Shown here: piece after piece, positions 6,917 through 15,264 of the stretch
Numbering within the stretch: the stretch's first letter is position 1
Layout of the letters: each line of letters opens with the position of its first letter
Virus record (IMG/VR): IMGVR_UViG_2558860274_000005
Span: 1-15,998 of that record
DNA length: 15,998 bases
Direction: 5' to 3' (one strand)
Source: a virus
Lineage: Duplodnaviria > Heunggongvirae > Uroviricota > Caudoviricetes
Notes under the pieces: generated by a model
Database searches by the model: none
What the model was told of the DNA's origin: nothing
What the model saw: only the letters and a program-made list of their open reading frames with translations
Translations under genes and position numbers: made by a program

Positions 6917-8230
6917 TCATTCTCCTGTTCTGCCTGTATCACTGCCCACTTCATCCAGCCCCTTAACATCCTGCCACGGCCCGTCACCAAATCTGACCTG
7001 CAAATGCTGAAACATCCCCTGAACCTGTGTGGCATCTTTGGGGTCAAGAAAGGTCAGTCCGGTGATGAGCGCACCATCTGTATCCGGGAACCAGCCATAG
7101 CTGTTTGTCTCAATAATGCTCATCGGCCCCAGACGAAAACGGATTTGTGTCTCGCCCGGGTCTCCCTTCGGCCCCTGAGGTCCGGTAGCCCCCACCGGAC
7201 CTGCCGCTCCTGTTTCTCCTTTCGGTCCCTGTGGGCCTGCCGGGCCTGCTGCACCGGTATCTCCCTTTGGCCCCTGTGGACCTGTACTTCCCGTCAGACC
7301 GGTCTCTCCCCGTTCACCCCTGTCGCCTTTCGGCCCCTGCGGGCCTGCCGGACCAGTATCTCCTCTCGGCCCCCGTTCGCCGGTTGCCCCGACAGGGCCG
7401 GTGTCACCACGCTCTCCCTTATCCCCCTTCGGCCCCTGAGGGCCGGCGGGCCCCTGTTCCCCCTTTGGCCCGGGAGGTCCCACCACGGTGGGGATTCGGT
7501 TTACGGCGTCTTCCGCCGCTATCCTGCTTTGTTCCGCTGACTGTGCGCTTTCTGCTGACTCCCGGGCTTTTTCTGCTGCGGTCGTTGCATCCCTGGCTGC
7601 ATTACCGGCTGCACTTTCTGCCGTCTTTCTTGACAATTCAGCTTCTGCTGCACTTTGTGATGACTCACTGGCTTTTTGAGCGGCCGCAGAGGCCGAGGAC
7701 GAGGACGCCTCCTCTGACTGCTTTGCAGCGGCTGCACTTTCTGCCGCCTGCCGGGCTGACTCCGATGCCTCCCCTGCTGAAGTGTCAGCATTTGCAGCGC
7801 TCTCTTCTGCCTGACTGGCTGATATGCCGGCATTCCTCGCGGACGTCTCCGCCTCTCCGGCATTCTTCTTCGCCTCCTCAGCGTGACGCGCCACCTCTTC
7901 CACCATCAGTTCAAAGCGACGCAGTGCCTCCGGCCGGACGTCATCCTCCGACATGGCACCGAGAAAATCATTCAGCGTCCCCGGTTGAGAATCTTCATAC
8001 ACGGTGATGGTCCCGGCATGTGACGGAGGAAATCCCTCCACCAACAGAATGACGCTGTACTGACCGTACTCAACGTCCATGCTGTAACGACCGGCTTCAT
8101 CCGGATTTTCAGAGGCCACCGTGTTCACCACCACCGTGCTGCTGGTCCGTCTGGCTTTCAGTTGAATGGTGCAGTTCTCTACCGGTTTTCCTGTGCCGTC
8201 TTTCAGTACACCTGAAATCTTTACTGCCAT
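6917..8230 (-). CDS. stf: Side tail fibre protein with collagen-like repeats
   Basis: N-terminus [28 protein letters not shown]...[21 protein letters not shown] matches the phage lambda Stf N-terminal domain as I recall it. Followed by an Ala/Ser/Glu-rich segment, about 37 Gly-X-Y collagen-like triplets and a distinct C-terminal domain. ATG at 8228-8230 preferred over the upstream GTG. Confidence 0.9.
7151..7489 (-). repeat. Collagen-like Gly-X-Y triplet repeat region inside stf
   Basis: Protein segment [29 protein letters not shown]...[11 protein letters not shown]. The DNA is a GC-rich 9-bp-periodic repeat (GGNCCNNNN) that also generates long spurious ORFs on the opposite strand and in other frames. 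Confidence 0.8.
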
Positions 8231-8241
8231 ATTCACCCCAC

Positions 8242-8267
8242 AAAAAAGCCCGCCTGAACCGGCGGGC
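8242..8267 (-). terminator. Rho-independent terminator between lom and stf
   Basis: On the minus strand: GCCCGCC-GGTTCA-GGCGGGC followed by TTTTTT (plus-strand stem 8248-8267, A-run 8242-8247). Confidence 0.5.
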
Positions 8268-8294
8268 TGTCATAACACTGTGTTACCTGGCTAA

Positions 8295-8846
8295 TCAGAA
8301 CTTATAACCGACACCCACGATGAAACCGTCAGTGCGCCAGTCGCCACTGCCGGAGCCTTCATAAGCAATATCAATGGCCACGGATTCGGTCGGGTTAAAC
8401 TGCACGCCAGCTCCCCACGCCAGAGACGTGTTGCTGTGGCGACCGTCATCACTTCCGGTCAGCACATCGTGCGTTTTCCCCTTGTTGTCAGTTACGCGAA
8501 GATAATCCCCGGAGAAAGTCGACACACGGCTGTAAGCCACACCCGCCATCGCATACGCGCTGAACCATTCATTCACGCGCACAGACGGCCCCGCCATTAC
8601 GCTGAACCAGCGGTTACGAACGGAATCTTCATGCCAGCGGGTATCGCTGTAACGGGTCAGCTGGCGATTCTTGTCTCCTGCATAGCTGAATGACGTCACC
8701 AGCCCCAGTGTGTCCGTAAACTCATAACGGTATTTCACGTTAATCCCGTTCAGATCATCACTGCCGGGAACGTTCGTCGAGGCATGAAGATACCCCGCGC
8801 TCAGCGTGGACTGATGTTCAGACGCCCATGCAGGCGCACCGGATAC
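8295..8846 (-). pseudogene. lom: lom-like outer-membrane protein gene (Lom/Ail/PagC family), 5'-truncated and lacking its signal peptide
   Basis: Product ...GAPAWASEHQSTLSAGYLHASTNVPGSDDLNGINVKYRYEFTDTLGLVTSF...FIVGVGYKF matches lambda Lom. Homology continues upstream of the ORF-track start (GTG 8738) to about 8846, then hits an in-frame stop at 8868-8870 with no signal peptide or start codon. Confidence 0.75.
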
Positions 8847-9078
8847 CCTGGCGACGCGCCTTACGCGTTAACCAGCCTTCTGCTTCCAGCCGTGCGATAG
8901 CCGTTCTGACGGTACTCATCCCCGCGCCAATCTGGCGGGCAATGGTTTCAATTGATGGCCAACACACACCTTCGTCATTACTGAAATCAGCCAGGCGGGC
9001 CATAATTGCCACGCTGGATAACTTCATGCCTGACGCAGCGCAACCATCCCATACATAGCCGGTTAATTTAGTGCTCAT
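8818..9078 (-). pseudogene. Replication-protein-like HTH protein, N-terminal fragment fused out of frame to lom DNA
   Basis: ATG 9076-9078 with SD GAGG. The first ~77 aa (MSTKLTGYVWDGCAASGMKLSSVAIMARLADFSNDEGVCWPSIETIARQIGAGMSTVRTAIARLEAEGWLTRKARRQG) look like the winged-helix N-terminus of prophage replication-initiation proteins. The frame then runs into lom-derived sequence and stops after 86 aa. Confidence 0.5.
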
Positions 9079-9087
9079 GACCGACCT

Positions 9088-9426
9088 CTATTTCCCTGAA
9101 TTTACGACGAAACTGTTCGAGCGGGCTGAAGCACTCATGCTCATAGCCTTCGCGGAGGTAGATAACCCGTTGTGTTTCCGGTTCCCAACGAATGACTCTG
9201 ACGGGCACTCCGTAGTGATCTTTGAACCAGCGGTTAACTTGTTGCAAAGGACTGTCTCCTTCTGCCGGTTGAAATCACCCACAGCCCACTCTGCAAATCT
9301 GTGGGTTACAATTTCCCTGTCACCTGGTACATTCACTGCATAGCAATACTCCACCTTCGCTTTTCCACCCGGTACAGGAAGCGCAATCAGTTGCGAGCGA
9401 CGGTAGTGTGTTGTTAAACTGTTCAT
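9088..9426 (-). CDS. Hypothetical early-operon protein
   Basis: 112-aa ORF whose ATG (9424-9426) overlaps the stop of the upstream gene in an ATGA arrangement. Lies 9 nt upstream of the replication-protein start. No family recognised. The plus-strand ORF 9071-9343 is treated as its shadow. Confidence 0.35.
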
Positions 9427-10007
9427 GCGTTAGTTTCTCCACAACCAGAAGCAATCGACGCCACGACGCCCGGAGCTGCACACTCGCGGGCGTTACTCTT
9501 TTCCGGCGCACAAAAAACACGAAATAACAGTGTTAAATGCTCCTGCCACTTCGCCATTACTTGGTAGCTGTTCTCTTCGATTTGCTCACGCTCAGCCTGG
9601 TCAATAACTCCATCAGCAGTTGCCTTGCGTAAGTACTGGGAATGCTTGCCAATCCATTCTATTGACTCCATCAGCCGCTGATTAATGTCACCATTGTCAA
9701 TGTCATCAATGACCACCAGCGGCACAAACACCCCATTACTACGACGGGCTATTGCATCTGTTACATGCCTGGTACCACTGGCATCCTGTAAAACCATGGC
9801 CCACTCAAGTGGAAAAATTTGATCCCCACCGCTACGCAGTCTGTTATGCAATTGATCTTTTGCTGGGGTGATATCATCAGATTTATACAAACCAAGAATT
9901 TCTGCTGCTTCCTCATAGCCATGAGGTAAATCAGCAATCGTTCTTCGTATTGCTGCCACCAGCCATGCTGGTTGTTTATCAACTTTCCATTCAGGTTCTT
10001 TACCCAC
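9423..10007 (-). CDS. Phage regulatory protein, CII-like/YdaT-like (tentative)
   Basis: 194-aa ORF with a GTG start (10005-10007) and SD GAGGA at 7-nt spacing, immediately downstream of the cro-like gene. Family assignment is from position and size, not a confident sequence match. Confidence 0.45.
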
Positions 10008-10034
10008 GGTTAATTCCTCATTTCTGTGGTGTTT

Positions 10035-10232
10035 TTATGCCGCAGCACTGTTAGTCTTTTGATATAAAGACACGTCAACTTTCAGTTTCCCGTTAGTAAT
10101 TTTTTCTAACTGGTACGCTCGGCCTTCAGGAATAATCTCAGGCCACTCTGAAACAGACGGATGCTTAATACCTAGGGCTTCGGCGGTTTTACAAACTCCG
10201 CCGAAATAATTAATCACGTCGGATTTCCGCAT
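10035..10232 (-). CDS. cro: Cro-like small DNA-binding repressor
   Basis: 65-aa ORF divergent from the CI gene across an operator-rich intergenic region. SD GGAGA 5 nt upstream of ATG 10230-10232. Helix-turn-helix-like segment KTAEALGIKHPSVSEW. Confidence 0.65.
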   Translation of the reverse strand: MRKSDVINYFGGVCKTAEALGIKHPSVSEWPEIIPEGRAYQLEKITNGKLKVDVSLYQKTNSAAA

Positions 10233-10264
10233 TTCTGTCTCCCGTTAAATTACGTTAAGCAGAA

Positions 10265-10329
10265 ATGTAGGATATCCAACATGTCAATGTCAAGAATCCT
10301 ACATTGGCATGTGGTAGGATTGCCTACAT
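10265..10329. promoter_or_regulatory. OR-like operator cluster between the cro-like and CI genes
   Basis: Three related sites: ATGTAGGATATCCAACAT (10265-10282), ATGTCAAGAATCCTACAT (10287-10304, opposite orientation) and a GTAGGATTGCCTACAT palindrome (about 10313-10328). All share the half-site TAGGAT/ATCCTA. Confidence 0.5.
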
Positions 10330-10981
10330 GATGAACATGAGTGATCGTATTCGCCAAAGGCGAAAAGAACTGAACCTGACACAACAAGCACTGGCTGATT
10401 TGACTGGTGTGAACCGTGTCACGGTTACTGGATGGGAAAAGGACGACTACCAACCAAATGGAGCCAACCTTCAAGCCCTAGCCAACGCACTTAAATGCGA
10501 TCCTCTGTGGCTTGTTAGCGGAAAAGGCTCGCCTGAACCAAAGATAAATCTAAAACCTGAAATATTCGCAGTTAAAAAAGTCCCCCTCATCTCGTGGGTT
10601 CAGGCGGGTTCATGGACAATGACGGAGCCTGGTGTCAGGAAAGAAGATGCTGAAGAGTGGGTTTATACTACCGCCCTTGTATCAGAAATGGCATTTGCAC
10701 TACGGGTCCGTGGTGATTCAATGACCAATCCCCTCGGCTCACCATCGATACCAGAAGGTTCTATCGTTATCGTAGAGCCAGATATTATTGATACAGAGTG
10801 TATTAACGGAAAAATCGTTGTTGCCCATATCAATGGTGGGCAAGAAGCGACACTCAAAAAATTTGTTGAGGACTGGCCGAACAGGTATCTCGTCCCACTA
10901 AATCCTAACTATAAAACTATTGAATGCGGTGAGAACTGCAGAATAGTTGGTCTTGTCAAACAAGTAATAATGGATTTTTGA
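10328..10981 (+). CDS. cI: CI-like prophage repressor (N-terminal HTH plus C-terminal LexA-like S24 autopeptidase domain)
   Basis: HTH segment LTQQALADLTGVNRVTVTGWE. S24 catalytic Ser (RVRGDSMTNP) and Lys (EATLKKF). ATG 10328 is preceded by AGGA. The ORF track's TTG start at 10304 is probably too far upstream. Confidence 0.9.
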   Translation: MMNMSDRIRQRRKELNLTQQALADLTGVNRVTVTGWEKDDYQPNGANLQALANALKCDPLWLVSGKGSPEPKINLKPEIFAVKKVPLISWVQAGSWTMTEPGVRKEDAEEWVYTTALVSEMAFALRVRGDSMTNPLGSPSIPEGSIVIVEPDIIDTECINGKIVVAHINGGQEATLKKFVEDWPNRYLVPLNPNYKTIECGENCRIVGLVKQVIMDF

Positions 10982-11002
10982 CACATCTTCCTCACTATCG
11001 CA

Positions 11003-11027
11003 AAACCGGGGTATCCCCGGTTTTTTT
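11003..11027 (+). terminator. Rho-independent terminator downstream of cI
   Basis: CCGGGG-TAT-CCCCGG stem-loop (11006-11020) followed by TTTTTTT (11021-11027). Confidence 0.55.
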
Positions 11028-11043
11028 ATGAGCCTATCTTTTT

Positions 11044-11097
11044 ATGTAGGATAACCAACATAAACTCTTGACACTCACATGTTTGATATCCTACATT
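11044..11097 (+). promoter_or_regulatory. pL-like early-left promoter flanked by two operator sites
   Basis: Operator ATGTAGGATAACCAACAT (11044-11061), perfect -35 TTGACA (11068-11073), operator ATGTTTGATATCCTACAT (11079-11096) overlapping a -10-like TACATT. Same operator family as the cro/cI intergenic sites. Confidence 0.45.
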
Positions 11098-11438
11098 TGT
11101 TTTTAGAGTTGTGGTGAAGGCGCAGGCTGATGCGCGAAAGACATTGCAGCTATTGCGGAAAAGAGCTGTTCGGCGGGGCAATTAAACGCCCGTGAGAGTC
11201 TGAAATAACCGCAAGCCGGAGATCAGCACCGGTCACCACAACAGCCACTGCTTTGGCGGTACCAGTTTGTACACTTGCTTCCGGCTGGTACCGCTCTTTT
11301 TACAAAACAGAGAAGAGCATCACCGGACGACGGGCTCATAACCCAATCCATCCGGGCGGCTGCCACCGCAGGTGTTCTTCTCTGTTTTGTGGAGAAACCA
11401 ACCGACCTTGCAGGGTCGATATGATGAGGAGCAGCAAA

Positions 11439-11801
11439 ATGGCTAGCGAACGCAGTACTGATGTGCAGGCATTTATCGGGGAGCTGGACGGCGGCGTATT
11501 TGAAACCAAAATCGGCGCAGTTCTCAGTGAAGTCGCTTCCGGTGTGATGAACACGAAAACCAAAGGGAAGGTCTCACTCAACCTGGAAATCGAACCATTT
11601 GATGAGAACCGTGTGAAAATCAAACACAAACTCTCATATGTTCGCCCGACTAACCGCGGGAAAATTTCCGAAGAAGACACCACCGAAACGCCGATGTATG
11701 TCAATCGCGGTGGTCGCCTGACTATTCTGCAGGAAGACCAGGGACAATTACTGACTCTTGCCGGTGAACCTGACGGAAAACTCCGCGCAGCAGGTCATTA
11801 A
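11439..11801 (+). CDS. YfdP-like prophage protein (120 aa)
   Basis: ATG 11439 preceded by AGGAG (11427-11431). The longer ORF-track version (from 11253) has an implausible Cys/Arg-rich leader. Size and position match YfdP of the KplE1/CPS-53 prophage as I recall it; assignment is from context and length. Confidence 0.6.
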   Translation: MASERSTDVQAFIGELDGGVFETKIGAVLSEVASGVMNTKTKGKVSLNLEIEPFDENRVKIKHKLSYVRPTNRGKISEEDTTETPMYVNRGGRLTILQEDQGQLLTLAGEPDGKLRAAGH

Positions 11802-11866
11802 TATCGTTCTTAATTAACTGATTATTTATCTCATCACTGAATATCTTTATATAGTGAGGACTTATT

Positions 11867-12691
11867 ATGTCTCAGAACTTAGACGCAACCGCAATTAATC
11901 AAATCCATGCCCTTATTTCTGCTCAGGGTGTTAATGAAATTATCAGTAAGATTGGTGCCGACGCAGTGGCATTACCTGAAAATTTCCGCATTCATGATCT
12001 GGAAAAATTTAATTTAAATCGCTTCCGTTTCCGTGGTGCGCTTTCCACTGCCAGCATCGATGACTTTACCCGTTATTCTAAAGATCTTGCAGATGAAGGC
12101 ACCCGCTGCTTTATCGATGCCGATAATATGCGAGCCGTCAGTGTGCTTAACCTGGGTACTATTGATGAACCAGGTCACGCAGATAACACCGCCACTCTCA
12201 AACTGAAAAAGACAGCACCGTTCTCTGCCCTGTTGTCTGTTAACGGCGAGCGTAACTCCCAGAAGTCACTGGCAGAATGGATCGAAGACTGGGCCGACTA
12301 CCTTGTGGGCTTTGATGCTAATGGTGATGCCATTCAGGCAACAAAAGCGGCTGCGGCAGTCCGTAAAATCACGATTGAAGCAAACCAGACCGCTGATTTT
12401 GAAGATAATGACTTCAGCGGCAAACGCTCCCTGATGGAGTCTGTCGAAGCGAAGACCAAAGATATTATGCCTGTGGCATTTGAATTTAAATGCGTTCCGT
12501 TTGAAGGCCTGAAAGAACGTCCGTTTAAATTACGCCTCAGCATTATCACTGGCGATCGTCCTGTACTGGTTCTGCGCATTATTCAGCTGGAAGCGGTGCA
12601 GGAAGAAATGGCTAACGAATTTCGTGATCTGCTTGTTGAGAAATTCAAAGACAGCAAAGTAGAAACCTTCATTGGTACTTTCATCGCCTGA
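11867..12691 (+). CDS. YfdQ-like protein (DUF2303 family)
   Basis: 274-aa ORF, the same length as E. coli YfdQ, in the yfdP-yfdQ-yfdR gene order. Function unknown. Confidence 0.7.
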
Positions 12692-12818
12692 TTTCATTAC
12701 TGCAAATGCCCCTGCGGGGGCATTTATGGAAACGTAATTAACTCAATAATCACCGGATGGTGAGGGCTTCCTTTTACCAGAATTCAGCGTGGTGCAGCAC
12801 ATATACGTGGAGAACAAA

Positions 12819-13355
12819 ATGTCATTTATTAAAACTTTTTCCGGGAAGCATTTTTATTATGACAGGATAAATAAAGACAACATCGATATTAACGATATCG
12901 CGGTTTCCCTTTCAAATATCTGTCGCTTTGCCGGTCATCTTTCACACTTCTACAGCGTCGCCCAACATGCGGTGCTTTGCAGCCAGCTGGTGCCGCAGGA
13001 ATTTGCTTTTGAAGCGTTAATGCATGATGCAACAGAAGCGTATTGCCAGGACATCCCCGCGCCACTGAAACGCCTTCTTCCTGACTATAAACGGATGGAA
13101 GAAAAAATAGACGCCGTAATCCGTGAGAAATACGGGTTACCCCCGGTTATGAGTACGCCCGTGAAATATGCCGATCTCATCATGCTGGCAACCGAACGCC
13201 GCGATCTCGGGCTTGATGATGGCTCTTTCTGGCCTGTACTGGAAGGCATCCCGGCAACAGAGATGTTCAAAGTTATTCCACTGTCACCAGGCCATGCCTA
13301 CGGGATGTTTATGGAACGTTTTAACGAGTTATCGGAGTTACGCAAATGCGCATGA
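12819..13355 (+). CDS. YfdR-like HD-domain phosphohydrolase (5'-deoxynucleotidase family)
   Basis: 178 aa from ATG 12819, with GGAG 6 nt upstream. Conserved HD-domain residues are visible (His in CRFAGHLSHFYSVAQH, and the HD pair in EALMHDATEAY). Length matches YfdR. Confidence 0.8.
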   Translation: MSFIKTFSGKHFYYDRINKDNIDINDIAVSLSNICRFAGHLSHFYSVAQHAVLCSQLVPQEFAFEALMHDATEAYCQDIPAPLKRLLPDYKRMEEKIDAVIREKYGLPPVMSTPVKYADLIMLATERRDLGLDDGSFWPVLEGIPATEMFKVIPLSPGHAYGMFMERFNELSELRKCA

Positions 13356-13867
13356 ATGTTTTCGAAATGGAAGGGTTTCTTCGCGGGAAATGTGTACCGC
13401 GAGATCTGAAAGTGAACGAAACAAATGCTGAGTACCTAGTACGTAAGTTCGACGCGCTTGAAGCTAAATGCGAGACGCTGGCGGCGGAGAATGCGCGGCT
13501 GAATAAATTTATCGTACAGAGTTGCTATGTGTTTAATGGCGAGCAGGATGAAATATCTGATGCGTATATCTGCGCAGCAGGCGGAGGTATGCCGCAAATT
13601 CCAGCCACCGATGCTTTTCTGGCTGAAATTCGTGCGGAGGCTCGCAACGAGGGAATTAACTATACCGCAAGTCGTCTTGCTGCAGCTTTCAACCACGGAT
13701 TTATCAATAAGTCTTTACGTGAAGTTTTCGACGTTACGCGCATGATTCTGTCAGCGAAAGAAGAGTTAGCTAATGAACCGCATCCGATTGATGGCCTGTC
13801 CGGTGAATATGCGGAGAAATCCCTTGAAGAATGGGCGGAGCAGATTCGCAAAGGAGGCAACCAGTGA
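13346..13867 (+). CDS. Hypothetical early-operon protein (possibly Ead/Ea22-like)
   Basis: 173-aa ORF translationally coupled to the upstream gene (ATGA overlap with its stop at 13353-13355). Predicted coiled-coil segment (EAKCETLAAENARLNKF). Family call tentative. Confidence 0.45.
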   Translation: MRMNVFEMEGFLRGKCVPRDLKVNETNAEYLVRKFDALEAKCETLAAENARLNKFIVQSCYVFNGEQDEISDAYICAAGGGMPQIPATDAFLAEIRAEARNEGINYTASRLAAAFNHGFINKSLREVFDVTRMILSAKEELANEPHPIDGLSGEYAEKSLEEWAEQIRKGGNQ

Positions 13868-14352
13868 CTGGACATGCAGCAATCCTCGACATGTGCTGTG
13901 GCAGTCGCATGTTCTGGTTCGATAAGAATGACGACCGGGCGATATTTAGCGACATCAGAAAGGAAGAGCACACATTATGTGATGGACGACGCCTGATAAT
14001 TAGCCCTGACCTGATAGCAGATTTTCGTGCATTACCATTTGCAGACGCATCGTTTCCGGTTGTTGTATTCGACCCTCCGCATCTTGAGCGTGTTGGTGAT
14101 AACGCCTGGATGGGAAAGAAATATGGACGGCTGAATAAAGATACCTGGCGTGATGATTTGCGGCAGGGATTTAAAGAAGCCTTTCGTGTGTTGTGGCCAA
14201 ACGGTGTTCTGGTTTTTAAATGGAATGAAACGCAAATACCGGTAAGCCAGATTTTGGCACTGACAGACAGAAAACCTGTTATCGGTCAACGAACAGGAAA
14301 AAACGATAAAACCCACTGGATTATTTTTATGAAAGAGGCAACCAGTGAGTAA
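13864..14352 (+). CDS. Putative phage DNA methyltransferase (SAM-dependent, amino-methyltransferase type)
   Basis: GTG 13864 overlaps the upstream stop (GTGA) and is preceded by AGGAGG (13852-13857). Product has a SAM-binding-like motif (ILDMCCGSRMF) and a DPPH tetrapeptide (VVVFDPPH) resembling motif IV, (D/N/S)PP(Y/F/W/H), of N6-adenine/N4-cytosine methyltransferases. Confidence 0.5.
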   Translation: MTGHAAILDMCCGSRMFWFDKNDDRAIFSDIRKEEHTLCDGRRLIISPDLIADFRALPFADASFPVVVFDPPHLERVGDNAWMGKKYGRLNKDTWRDDLRQGFKEAFRVLWPNGVLVFKWNETQIPVSQILALTDRKPVIGQRTGKNDKTHWIIFMKEATSE

Positions 14353-14656
14353 TTATCTGTACTGGTCTGGCTTAGTGGCTAACATCGCGCTCATGTTGTT
14401 CGTGGCTCTTTGCATCTGGGTTTGGTTTATCTGGCCTTTTGTAGAGGCCATGAGCATAACTCGGTGCTTTATTTGCGCATCAAAGACTTCTGGATGCAAA
14501 CCAACTGTAAGAGCAATTATCAGAACTTTAAAATACTGGTATCTGGATTTGCTTTTCGGCAGGGGCTGGACGCGAATTAGTAACCGCCAGTTTGAATGGG
14601 AAGGCGTCGGTAACTGGCGAATTCACAGCAGCAAAGAAACGCAGGAGGTGAAGTAA
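14345..14656 (+). CDS. Small predicted membrane protein
   Basis: 103-aa ORF with a GTG start overlapping the upstream gene end; hydrophobic N-terminal segment (LVANIALMLFVALCIWVWFIWPFV). Confidence 0.4.
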   Translation: MSNYLYWSGLVANIALMLFVALCIWVWFIWPFVEAMSITRCFICASKTSGCKPTVRAIIRTLKYWYLDLLFGRGWTRISNRQFEWEGVGNWRIHSSKETQEVK

Positions 14657-15228
14657 TGAATAACTTAATGATCGACCTTGAGACGATGGGGAAAAATAAG
14701 GATGCACCGATCGTTTCCATTGGCGCGGTGTTCTTCACTCCAGAAACCGGAGACATCGGACAAGAATTCTATACGGTTGTTAGCCTGGAAAGTGCTATGG
14801 GGCAAGGAGCTACACCTGACGGCGATACCATCCTGTGGTGGTTGAAACAAAGCCCTGAAGCACGAGCTGCAATCTGTATTGATGATACTTTGTCGATCAG
14901 CGATGCTCTCTCAGAACTAAATCATTTCATTAACCGGCACGCAGACAATACGAAATATTTAAAAGTCTGGGGTAACGGAGCCACCTTCGACAACGTAATT
15001 TTACGTGGAGCTTATGAGCGAGCAGGACAAATCTGCCCGTGGGCATACTGGAATGACCACGATGTACGCACGATCGTTACGCTTGGGTGTTCCATCGGAT
15101 TCGACCCCAAAATGGACATGCCTTTCGATGGCGAACGGCACAACGCCCTGGCTGATGCCCGTCATCAGGCAAAATATGTTTCCGCTATCTGGCAGAAATT
15201 AATTCCTGCCACCAGCACAGAATTATGA
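14656..15228 (+). CDS. DnaQ-like (DEDD family) 3'-5' exonuclease
   Basis: 190-aa ORF with the Exo I motif (MIDLETMG), central acidic motif (FDNVIL) and Exo III H-x4-D motif (HNALADA). ATG overlaps the upstream stop (TAATG-type coupling). Confidence 0.8.
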   Translation: MNNLMIDLETMGKNKDAPIVSIGAVFFTPETGDIGQEFYTVVSLESAMGQGATPDGDTILWWLKQSPEARAAICIDDTLSISDALSELNHFINRHADNTKYLKVWGNGATFDNVILRGAYERAGQICPWAYWNDHDVRTIVTLGCSIGFDPKMDMPFDGERHNALADARHQAKYVSAIWQKLIPATSTEL

Positions 15229-15264
15229 TTTTCCCGGGTGCAGCCGGTTTTGATGGAGAAAATT

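Follow-up and report, generated by a model that had tools for sequence, protein, structure and literature searches.

Five predicted operator sites in the CI/Cro immunity module of a lambdoid prophage remnant of the P22/21 type

The stretch of viral DNA analyzed here (15,998 nt, positions 1 to 15,998 of IMG/VR record IMGVR_UViG_2558860274_000005; hereafter the window) carries a lambdoid immunity region in which five 18-bp sites, predicted operators of a CI-like repressor, lie at two candidate early promoters. The region is built around two divergent genes separated by a 95-nt gap. A cro-like gene of the P22_Cro family (65 aa) occupies 10035..10232 on the minus strand (Pfam PF14549, E 7.6e-22), and a cI-like repressor gene (217 aa) occupies 10328..10981 on the plus strand. 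The Cro-like protein, from what RefSeq labels a Cro/CI-family gene, was 47% identical to P22-type Cro and 57% identical to the Cro of phage mEp390. Behind cro, the second gene of the pR operon (9423..10007, minus strand) encodes a product named by RefSeq as 'YmfL family putative regulatory protein', with a weak CII match in Pfam (PF06892, Phage_CP76, E 1.3e-6). Behind cI lies an intrinsic terminator (11002..11027, plus strand) with a CCGGGG/CCCCGG stem at 11006-11020, a run of A before it and seven T at 11021-11027; its inverted repeat has 10-nt arms that are 100% complementary, and it folds at -17 kcal/mol (z -3.8). The candidate promoter pL, a structured leader and yfdP (11439..11801, plus strand), the first gene of the leftward early operon, follow. 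The yfdP assignment came from Pfam and from the RefSeq annotation of the prophage in enterotoxigenic Escherichia coli (ETEC) H10407, a 99.7% identical copy whose annotation was mapped onto window coordinates.

The 217-aa protein combines an N-terminal helix-turn-helix (HTH) domain with a C-terminal S24 self-cleaving domain (Pfam HTH_3, 1.1e-15; Peptidase_S24, 3.7e-25). It aligned with lambda CI (E 7e-25, 3bdn), and its N-terminal domain aligned with P22 C2 (E 4e-14). Ala93-Gly94, Ser131 and Lys177 aligned with lambda A111-G112, S149 and K192, respectively. With both domains, these alignments and the Ala-Gly, Ser and Lys residues in place, the protein is best read as a CI-type, SOS-cleavable repressor.

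The five 18-bp sites are imperfect versions of the palindrome ATGTAGGAT·ATCCTACAT: three fall in the cro-cI gap and two past the cI terminator. Scored against the symmetric consensus ATGTAGGATATCCTACAT, the sites in the gap were OR1 (ATGTAGGATATCCAACAT, 10265..10282) with 17/18 matches, OR2 (ATGTCAAGAATCCTACAT, 10287..10304) with 13/18, and OR3 (TGGTAGGATTGCCTACAT, 10312..10329) with 14/18. Past the terminator, OL2 (ATGTAGGATAACCAACAT, 11044..11061) and OL1 (ATGTTTGATATCCTACAT, 11079..11096) each scored 16/18. Centre-to-centre spacing was 22 bp for OR1-OR2, 25 bp for OR2-OR3 and 35 bp for OL2-OL1. With a cut-off of at least 13/18, the five sites were the only 18-mers found in the window, and 300 dinucleotide shuffles averaged 0.6. 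An intact relative had the same five sites and none besides in 16.5 kb. The exact half-site ATGTAGGAT occurred four times in the window, every time within one of the five sites. A third OL site was looked for between OL2 and OL1 and further upstream, in the tail of the terminator, and rejected: the best match was 6/18 by eye and none reached 13/18.

An earlier, sequence-only reading of this DNA had described five copies of one 18-bp string or its reverse complement, three between the cro-like and cI genes and two flanking a TTGACA promoter after the cI terminator. The family proved real in both the pattern and the consensus scans, its extent (10265-11097) accurate and its arrangement, including the TTGACA at 11068-11073, as described. 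A search of the whole window for that string, ATGTAGGATANCCAACAT, allowing up to three mismatches, returned 10265-10282 (0 mismatches), 11044-11061 (0) and 11079-11096 (1, reverse strand) and nothing else, against 0.03 chance matches expected from shuffles. Three copies thus fit the string with zero or one mismatch; OR2 (10287-10304) and OR3 (10312-10329), with four mismatches each, are degenerate copies of it. The three strong sites (OR1, OL2 and OL1) each consist of one TAGG half and one TTGG half, and this asymmetry is what the string records. The motif did not occur at comparable frequency elsewhere in the window.

A scan for consensus promoters found TTGACA-18-TACATT twice, each with 10/12 matches. 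The pR candidate (10264..10293, minus strand; -35 at 10293-10288, -10 at 10269-10264) faces cro, and the pL candidate (11068..11097, plus strand; -35 at 11068-11073, -10 at 11092-11097) faces yfdP; both have an 18-nt spacer. From these positions, transcription would start at about 10256-10258 for pR and 11104-11106 for pL. OR1 overlaps the -10 and spacer of pR, the left half of OR2 is the pR -35 and its right half is a perfect half-site. OL1 overlaps the spacer and -10 of pL and OL2 lies directly upstream of the -35, so that the two bracket it.

Over 40 nt the pR and pL stretches are 85% complementary to each other, as an inverted repeat. The 18-bp repeats might accordingly be a by-product of a duplicated promoter, with no repressor reading the palindrome: the 40-nt repeat contains OR1 and OL1, and the half-sites look like -10 hexamers. 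Yet OR3 and OL2 lie outside the repeat and show the same palindrome, and the right half of OR2 is upstream of the pR -35 and is conserved nonetheless. A promoter, moreover, has no need of the internal symmetry that each site shows. We consider a promoter by-product very improbable.

The start of cI is overlapped by OR3, which covers the first two bases of the ATG and a candidate maintenance promoter, pRM. The only plus-strand match of the promoter scan in the gap, TTGGCA (10304-10309)-17-CATGAT, was rejected as a conserved pRM because its -35 falls in the second of the hypervariable patches described below (TGGGCA in most E. coli copies) and is missing in other lineages, and also because its start would fall past the ATG codons. 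A candidate that is conserved is the extended -10 element TGgTAGGAT (10312-10320) within OR3, which stops 7 nt before the conserved cI ATG and would start transcription near the ATG at 10328. In that case the cI mRNA would lack a leader, as lambda's does. Transcripts that start further upstream could use AGGA at 10317-10320 as a ribosome-binding site.

Diverged copies of the module were gathered by a genome scan and a viral-contig scan. They came from Enterobacter soli (cI 84% identical to that of the window), Pantoea brenneri (76%), Erwinia tracheiphila (90% over the best segment), phage mEp390 (61%) and 80 IMG/VR loci (75-100%). The Erwinia cI is frameshifted and was not used whole in alignments. 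In E. coli, mEp390, Enterobacter soli, Pantoea brenneri and Erwinia tracheiphila, sites were found at -63/-64, -41/-42 and -16 from the cI ATG, and two sites 35 bp apart surrounded TTGACA after the terminator (cI 61-100% identical). The cro leader, the spacers and everything past pL diverged between lineages while the five sites held position. The pR hexamers were kept in all lineages, and the pL -35 was invariant in all clades. OR1 was identical in the E. coli, Enterobacter, Pantoea and Erwinia lineages. OR3 was identical at 18/18 positions in four lineages and at 17/18 in Erwinia, though it departs from the consensus; this suggests a second constraint, plausibly the extended -10 form TGgTAGGAT inside it. 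OR2 stood 22 bp from OR1 in all lineages, its right half conserved though outside the pR hexamers. A score of 13/18 is not significant by itself, and OR2 is supported by position and conservation; of the five sites it is the most doubtful, and its occupancy probably requires cooperativity. In Erwinia tracheiphila (locus L008, 1501-2153) the frameshift has split cI into 167-aa and 54-aa open reading frames (ORFs), and the five sites and both promoters are still recognizable.

Diversity within lineages followed the same outline. Across 13 Enterobacter-type loci, cI synonymous diversity was 0.30 and spacer diversity 0.15-0.26, while diversity was zero in OR1 and OR3, 0.009 in OR2 and OL1, and 0.07 in OL2; the -35 was invariant. 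We read this pattern as a clean footprint of purifying selection on the 18-bp blocks, and operator blocks that stay invariant where synonymous sites reach 0.30 speak further against the promoter by-product. In 64 E. coli copies the 18-bp blocks were likewise nearly fixed and the bases in between variable. The recognition helix of the repressor, VNRVTVTGWE, was invariant wherever this operator family occurred. In the Enterobacter-type loci (L072-L083, L006) the cI synonymous diversity of 0.30 stood against 0.02 in cro, a contrast which suggests that OR itself may be a recombination junction between cI and cro alleles.

The limits of homology on both sides point to operators, promoters, cro and cI moving as one exchange unit. 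In BLAST comparisons, homology to the Enterobacter, Pantoea and Erwinia modules stopped exactly at 11097, the last base of the pL -10, and homology to the leaders of mEp460-type phages, which have other repressors, started at 11105, at the predicted pL start. Beyond cro, homology with mEp460_4F5 covers 9073-10030, including the ymfL gene, and leaves out cro and cI. The ymfL gene is not part of the specificity module, because it is common to phages of other immunity types. A single exchange unit is as expected of an immunity-specificity module.

The layout is that of a lambdoid switch: divergent cI and cro with a short gap, a repressor with HTH and S24 domains, three palindromes at OR and a second set at pL. 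In architecture it belongs with P22 and 21, by an 18-bp operator symmetric between bases 9 and 10, a Cro of the P22_Cro family and an OR3 beside the repressor ATG. [quoted passage not shown] At 14/18 positions it agrees with the consensus found here, which shares the GATATC-type centre and 9-bp half-sites. Half-site positions 3 and 6 differ (ATGTAGGAT here, ATTTAAGAT in P22), so that the contacted block is GTAGG or GTTGG in place of the P22 TTAAG, outside the P22 c2 specificity. The P22 C2 recognition helix, VSNVAISQWE, differs from VNRVTVTGWE at 4/10 residues; over the whole protein C2 and this repressor are 44% identical, with matches of PDB 1adr/2r1j to the N-terminal domain. Spacing is close to that of the P22-type locus, where OR1-OR2 is 23 bp, OR2-OR3 is 25 bp and OR3 ends at the c2 ATG. 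Unlike this module, P22 and 21 have OL1-3, and the P22 early-left operon holds the N-type gene 24 where a structured leader and then yfdP are found here. Since recognition helix and operator both differ, an immunity different from that of P22 is expected, and the switch very probably has a specificity of its own. The suggestion that the operator sequence would define an immunity specificity group is therefore a reasonable one: the helix is invariant with the operator family, and the P22 helix and operator differ together.

Binding by a host or other regulator, such as LexA, instead of the adjacent CI/Cro was considered. The RefSeq name for the cI product is 'LexA family protein', and the sites have a loose TGT...ACA look. 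The LexA (SOS) box is a palindrome with the consensus CTG-N10-CAG. That core is missing from the five sites, which read ATG-N12-CAT. The sites are also inherited with cI and cro as one module that ends at the module boundary, and the operator departs from the P22 consensus where the recognition helix departs from that of C2. A host or other regulator is the least probable of the explanations weighed here, and a very improbable one.

The sequence-only reading had also held that the region reproduces the lambda logic, and the layout bears this out: lambda shares divergent cI and cro around a tripartite OR, with a terminator after cI and then OL/pL in the same direction. The C-terminal domain of lambda CI is homologous to that of this repressor and shares the Ala-Gly, Ser and Lys residues. 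The likeness goes less far in detail. Lambda operators are 17 bp long and unrelated in sequence, and lambda Cro belongs to another fold family. Lambda also differs from this module in having three OL sites, rexAB between cI and OL, and N/nut antitermination. The switch is nearer to P22/21 than to lambda in architecture, with lambda-like logic; it has two OL sites instead of three, and its OR2 is half operator and half -35 hexamer.

Two other phages bear on the layout. In Stx2 phage 933W two OL sites around pL, not three, have been reported (PMC4587872, citing Tyler et al. 2004, Fattah et al. 2000). The 933W repressor and operator sequences are unrelated to those described here, and the Stx2a-phage cI is about 34% identical to this cI. 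Among sequenced phages with a diverged copy, mEp390 (NC_019721) is the nearest (cI 61%, cro 57% identical). Its recognition helix and its OR3 are identical to those here, and it shares the five-site layout and the 35-bp OL spacing; it differs in having several half-sites ATGTAAGAT or AAGTAAGAT, a weaker OR2 and other flanking genes.

From these observations we regard the region as the immunity module of a lambdoid P22/21-type prophage, with a CI-like repressor and five predicted operators at pR and pL, at a probability of roughly 85%. In the proposed switch, a dimer of the CI-like repressor would bind 18-bp operators through 9-bp half-sites of consensus ATGTAGGAT. Occupancy of OR1 and OR2 would cover the pR -10 and -35 and silence cro and the ymfL gene on the minus strand; occupancy of OL1 and OL2 would bracket the pL -35, cover the -10 and silence the yfdP operon on the plus strand. 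The overlap of OR3 with the cI start and the probable maintenance promoter would provide negative autoregulation. Cro is expected on the same sites in the lytic state, and RecA-stimulated self-cleavage at Ala93-Gly94 would lift repression. Judged by match to consensus, OR1 and OL1 would be occupied first, then OL2, then OR3 and OR2. Which protein binds at the predicted sites, and whether it does so cooperatively, we infer from sequence.

Several observations weigh against this interpretation. OR2 scores only 13/18, its left half is just the -35 hexamer, and its right half is weaker in Pantoea and Erwinia. There are only two OL sites, and their 35-bp distance (3.3 helical turns) is ill-suited to lambda-style cooperativity between adjacent dimers. 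Position 11084 in OL1, a conserved half-site position, is a T private to this copy (ATGTTTGAT) where the other 63 copies have G (ATGTTGGAT); with G, OL1 would score 17/18. The promoter calls are confounded in that TAGGAT or TACAT, both -10-like, occurs in every half-site; TAGGAT in particular is also operator sequence, which makes the position of pRM inseparable from the operator constraint. A hairpin resembling a terminator stands 150 nt downstream of pL and no N-like gene is in view, so that transcription of the yfdP operon from pL may need additional help. As to a working switch, the prophage itself is a cryptic deletion remnant with its immunity module retained.

The state of this copy can be read from its surroundings. 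The match to the intact H10407 prophage is lost left of 8840, and a deletion junction at 8738-8840 places an O-like HTH replication gene, truncated to 86 codons, beside a lom gene whose first ~52 codons are missing (the Pfam match spans positions 53-199 only). Replication, Q/late-regulation, lysis, head and tail (morphogenesis) genes are missing. The left part of the window contains a host short-chain dehydrogenase gene (1-744), a fragment resembling dusA (1200-1302, 82% to the dusA pseudogene found at the end of the H10407 prophage), a tyrosine integrase (1388-2485), a DUF4765 protein of 1134 aa (2818-6222) and an IS66 C-terminal fragment (6307-6597). Going on from the lom gene, a tail-fibre gene comes first, ahead of the IS66 fragment, the DUF4765 gene, the integrase and the dusA-like fragment in that order. 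Downstream of yfdP are yfdQ/DUF2303 (11867-12691, plus strand, from the RefSeq annotation of the H10407 prophage), a yfdR-like gene, an exonuclease gene and a PrtN-like gene. The segment 9400-11900 is 99.4-99.7% identical to prophages of ETEC H10407 and other E. coli and to several phages: Stx1 phage Lys8385Vzw, three Stx2c phages, vB_EcoM-720R4 and SKA5. At least 80% of this 2.5-kb query was present in 129/5,426 complete E. coli genomes; inducible Stx1- and Stx2c-converting phages carry the same cI.

It could accordingly be that the operators and promoters are a correct set by descent and no longer a working switch, the sites persisting for lack of decay time. The truncation of the O-like gene after about 79 codons, at about 8840, its fusion to the cut lom and the loss of the other gene blocks fit such a history, as does the private G→T at 11084. 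The immunity module of the remnant is, that substitution aside, intact: cI is full length with its catalytic residues, and cI, cro, the terminator, both promoters and 4/5 sites are identical to those of the inducible Lys8385Vzw, vB_EcoM-720R4 and SKA5. Cryptic prophages often keep an active repressor, as Rac and Qin do in K-12, which also weighs against a decayed switch. We hold a decayed switch to be unlikely, if the most serious of the alternatives to a switch operated by the CI-like repressor. The sequence-only reading called the immunity region functional; for this copy, a deletion remnant with a private substitution in OL1, presumably functional is the better wording.

The bases between the sites behaved very differently from the sites. 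In the 64 E. coli-type copies, all with identical CI proteins, 13 inter-site nucleotides stood out in three hypervariable patches. Patch 1 (10283..10286), between OR1 and OR2 and at bases 2-5 of the pR spacer, had a mean diversity of 0.22 and 5.5 parsimony steps per site; patch 2 (10305..10308), between OR2 and OR3, had 4.75 steps per site and three alleles at both 10305 and 10307; patch 3 (11074..11078), in the pL spacer between the -35 and OL1, had 3.6 steps per site and a diversity of 0.16. Mean pairwise difference was 2.43 (18.7%) over these 13 nt and 4.69 (0.39%) over the other 1,196 nt, a ~50-fold contrast. The 3.6-5.5 parsimony steps per site in the patches were ~60-90 times the 0.06 at cI third codon positions. 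This 1% of the length held a third of all differences, and 14 copies identical everywhere else carried six haplotypes at the patch bases.

The patches sit just downstream of the pR and pL -35 and just upstream of OR3, and are the only promoter positions not also under operator constraint. As a control, 57 phage-21/P22-type modules from the same collection were examined; in these, spacer diversity did not exceed synonymous diversity, which ruled out spacer hypervariability as a general lambdoid feature or an IMG/VR artefact. Quasi-palindrome centres, CATG sites, Dcm/very short patch (VSP) contexts, pR-pL gene conversion and a small upstream ORF were tried, with haplotypes compared by eye, and none fitted all three patches. 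Tentatively, selection may repeatedly retune the switch through these free bases (promoter strength or induction set-point), or there may be a mutational hot spot where the DNA borders an array of repressors that is always occupied.

The pL leader (11104..11438, plus strand; fold z -5.45) is common to phages of other immunity types. It contains a terminator-like hairpin, GGCGGTACCAG...CTGGTACCGC (11255-11294), followed by TCTTTTT at 11295-11301, between pL and yfdP. A long stem pairing 11302-11321 with 11371-11390 then closes a three-way junction that holds a tRNA-fMet-like hairpin (11323-11355, with GGGCUCAUAACCC at 11332-11344) and a variable hairpin (11356-11369), and a conserved GGAGAAAC lies at 11391-11398. 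The segment 11255-11398 was conserved in the early-left leaders of SfV, SfII, SfIV, cdtI, mEp460, ST64B, Stx2c phages, phiNP and Klebsiella/Pantoea phages; in the phage search HK022 had no sequence similarity. In 26 diverse copies the terminator-like hairpin and junction comprised 41 pairs, 10 with compensatory changes, and across phages the hairpin stem covaried and the T run was conserved. No N-like ORF was found between pL and yfdP, and a search of Rfam at gathering and E-value thresholds returned no match for the leader. At 11292-11305, partly over the tail of the terminator, lies a boxA-like CGCTCTTTTTACAA. Over its first ~77 nt the leader matches the 5' end of an mEp460 gene on the minus strand. 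A stem-loop at 11108-11242 is unlikely as a conserved RNA, its 5' part being homologous to the start of that mEp460 gene, cut at a mosaic junction.

One of the arms at the junction reads CCGGR-CGAC-GGG-CUCAUAA-CCC-AAUCCA-YCCGG. Its tip, three G-C pairs and a CAU loop (CUCAUAA), we take to be like the anticodon stem-loop of initiator tRNA (tRNA-fMet). The 17-mer that found the element also retrieved what are presumably genuine phage tRNA-Met genes; ARAGORN found no tRNA in the window. In Klebsiella phage GZ7 (L291, 1500-1590) a diverged element, GGGCUCAUAAUCC, directly follows tRNA-Asn and tRNA-Arg genes downstream of Q, so the element occurs in a late-region tRNA cluster as well. Ideas for the role of the leader RNA include an anticodon-nuclease decoy, a processing signal, and control of translation or antitermination.

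In the literature searched, neither a description of these operators nor binding, footprint, reporter or transcript-start data for the module were found under the half-site string, Stx2c-phage operators, mEp390, Lys8385Vzw or 720R4. According to the paper on Lys8385Vzw, that phage lacks CI and Cro (PMC7946995), a statement through which the module has gone unrecognized. The system is a new member of a well-known kind of switch and offers no new principle. What a specialist might not expect are the hypervariable bases between the operators and the tRNA-like RNA of the leader. With a defined operator consensus and site map, immunity groups become assignable from sequence. The map gives concrete DNA targets for binding and reporter tests, and it predicts in which cases a resident remnant, this one for example, would be expected to exclude homoimmune Stx phages or to dampen them.

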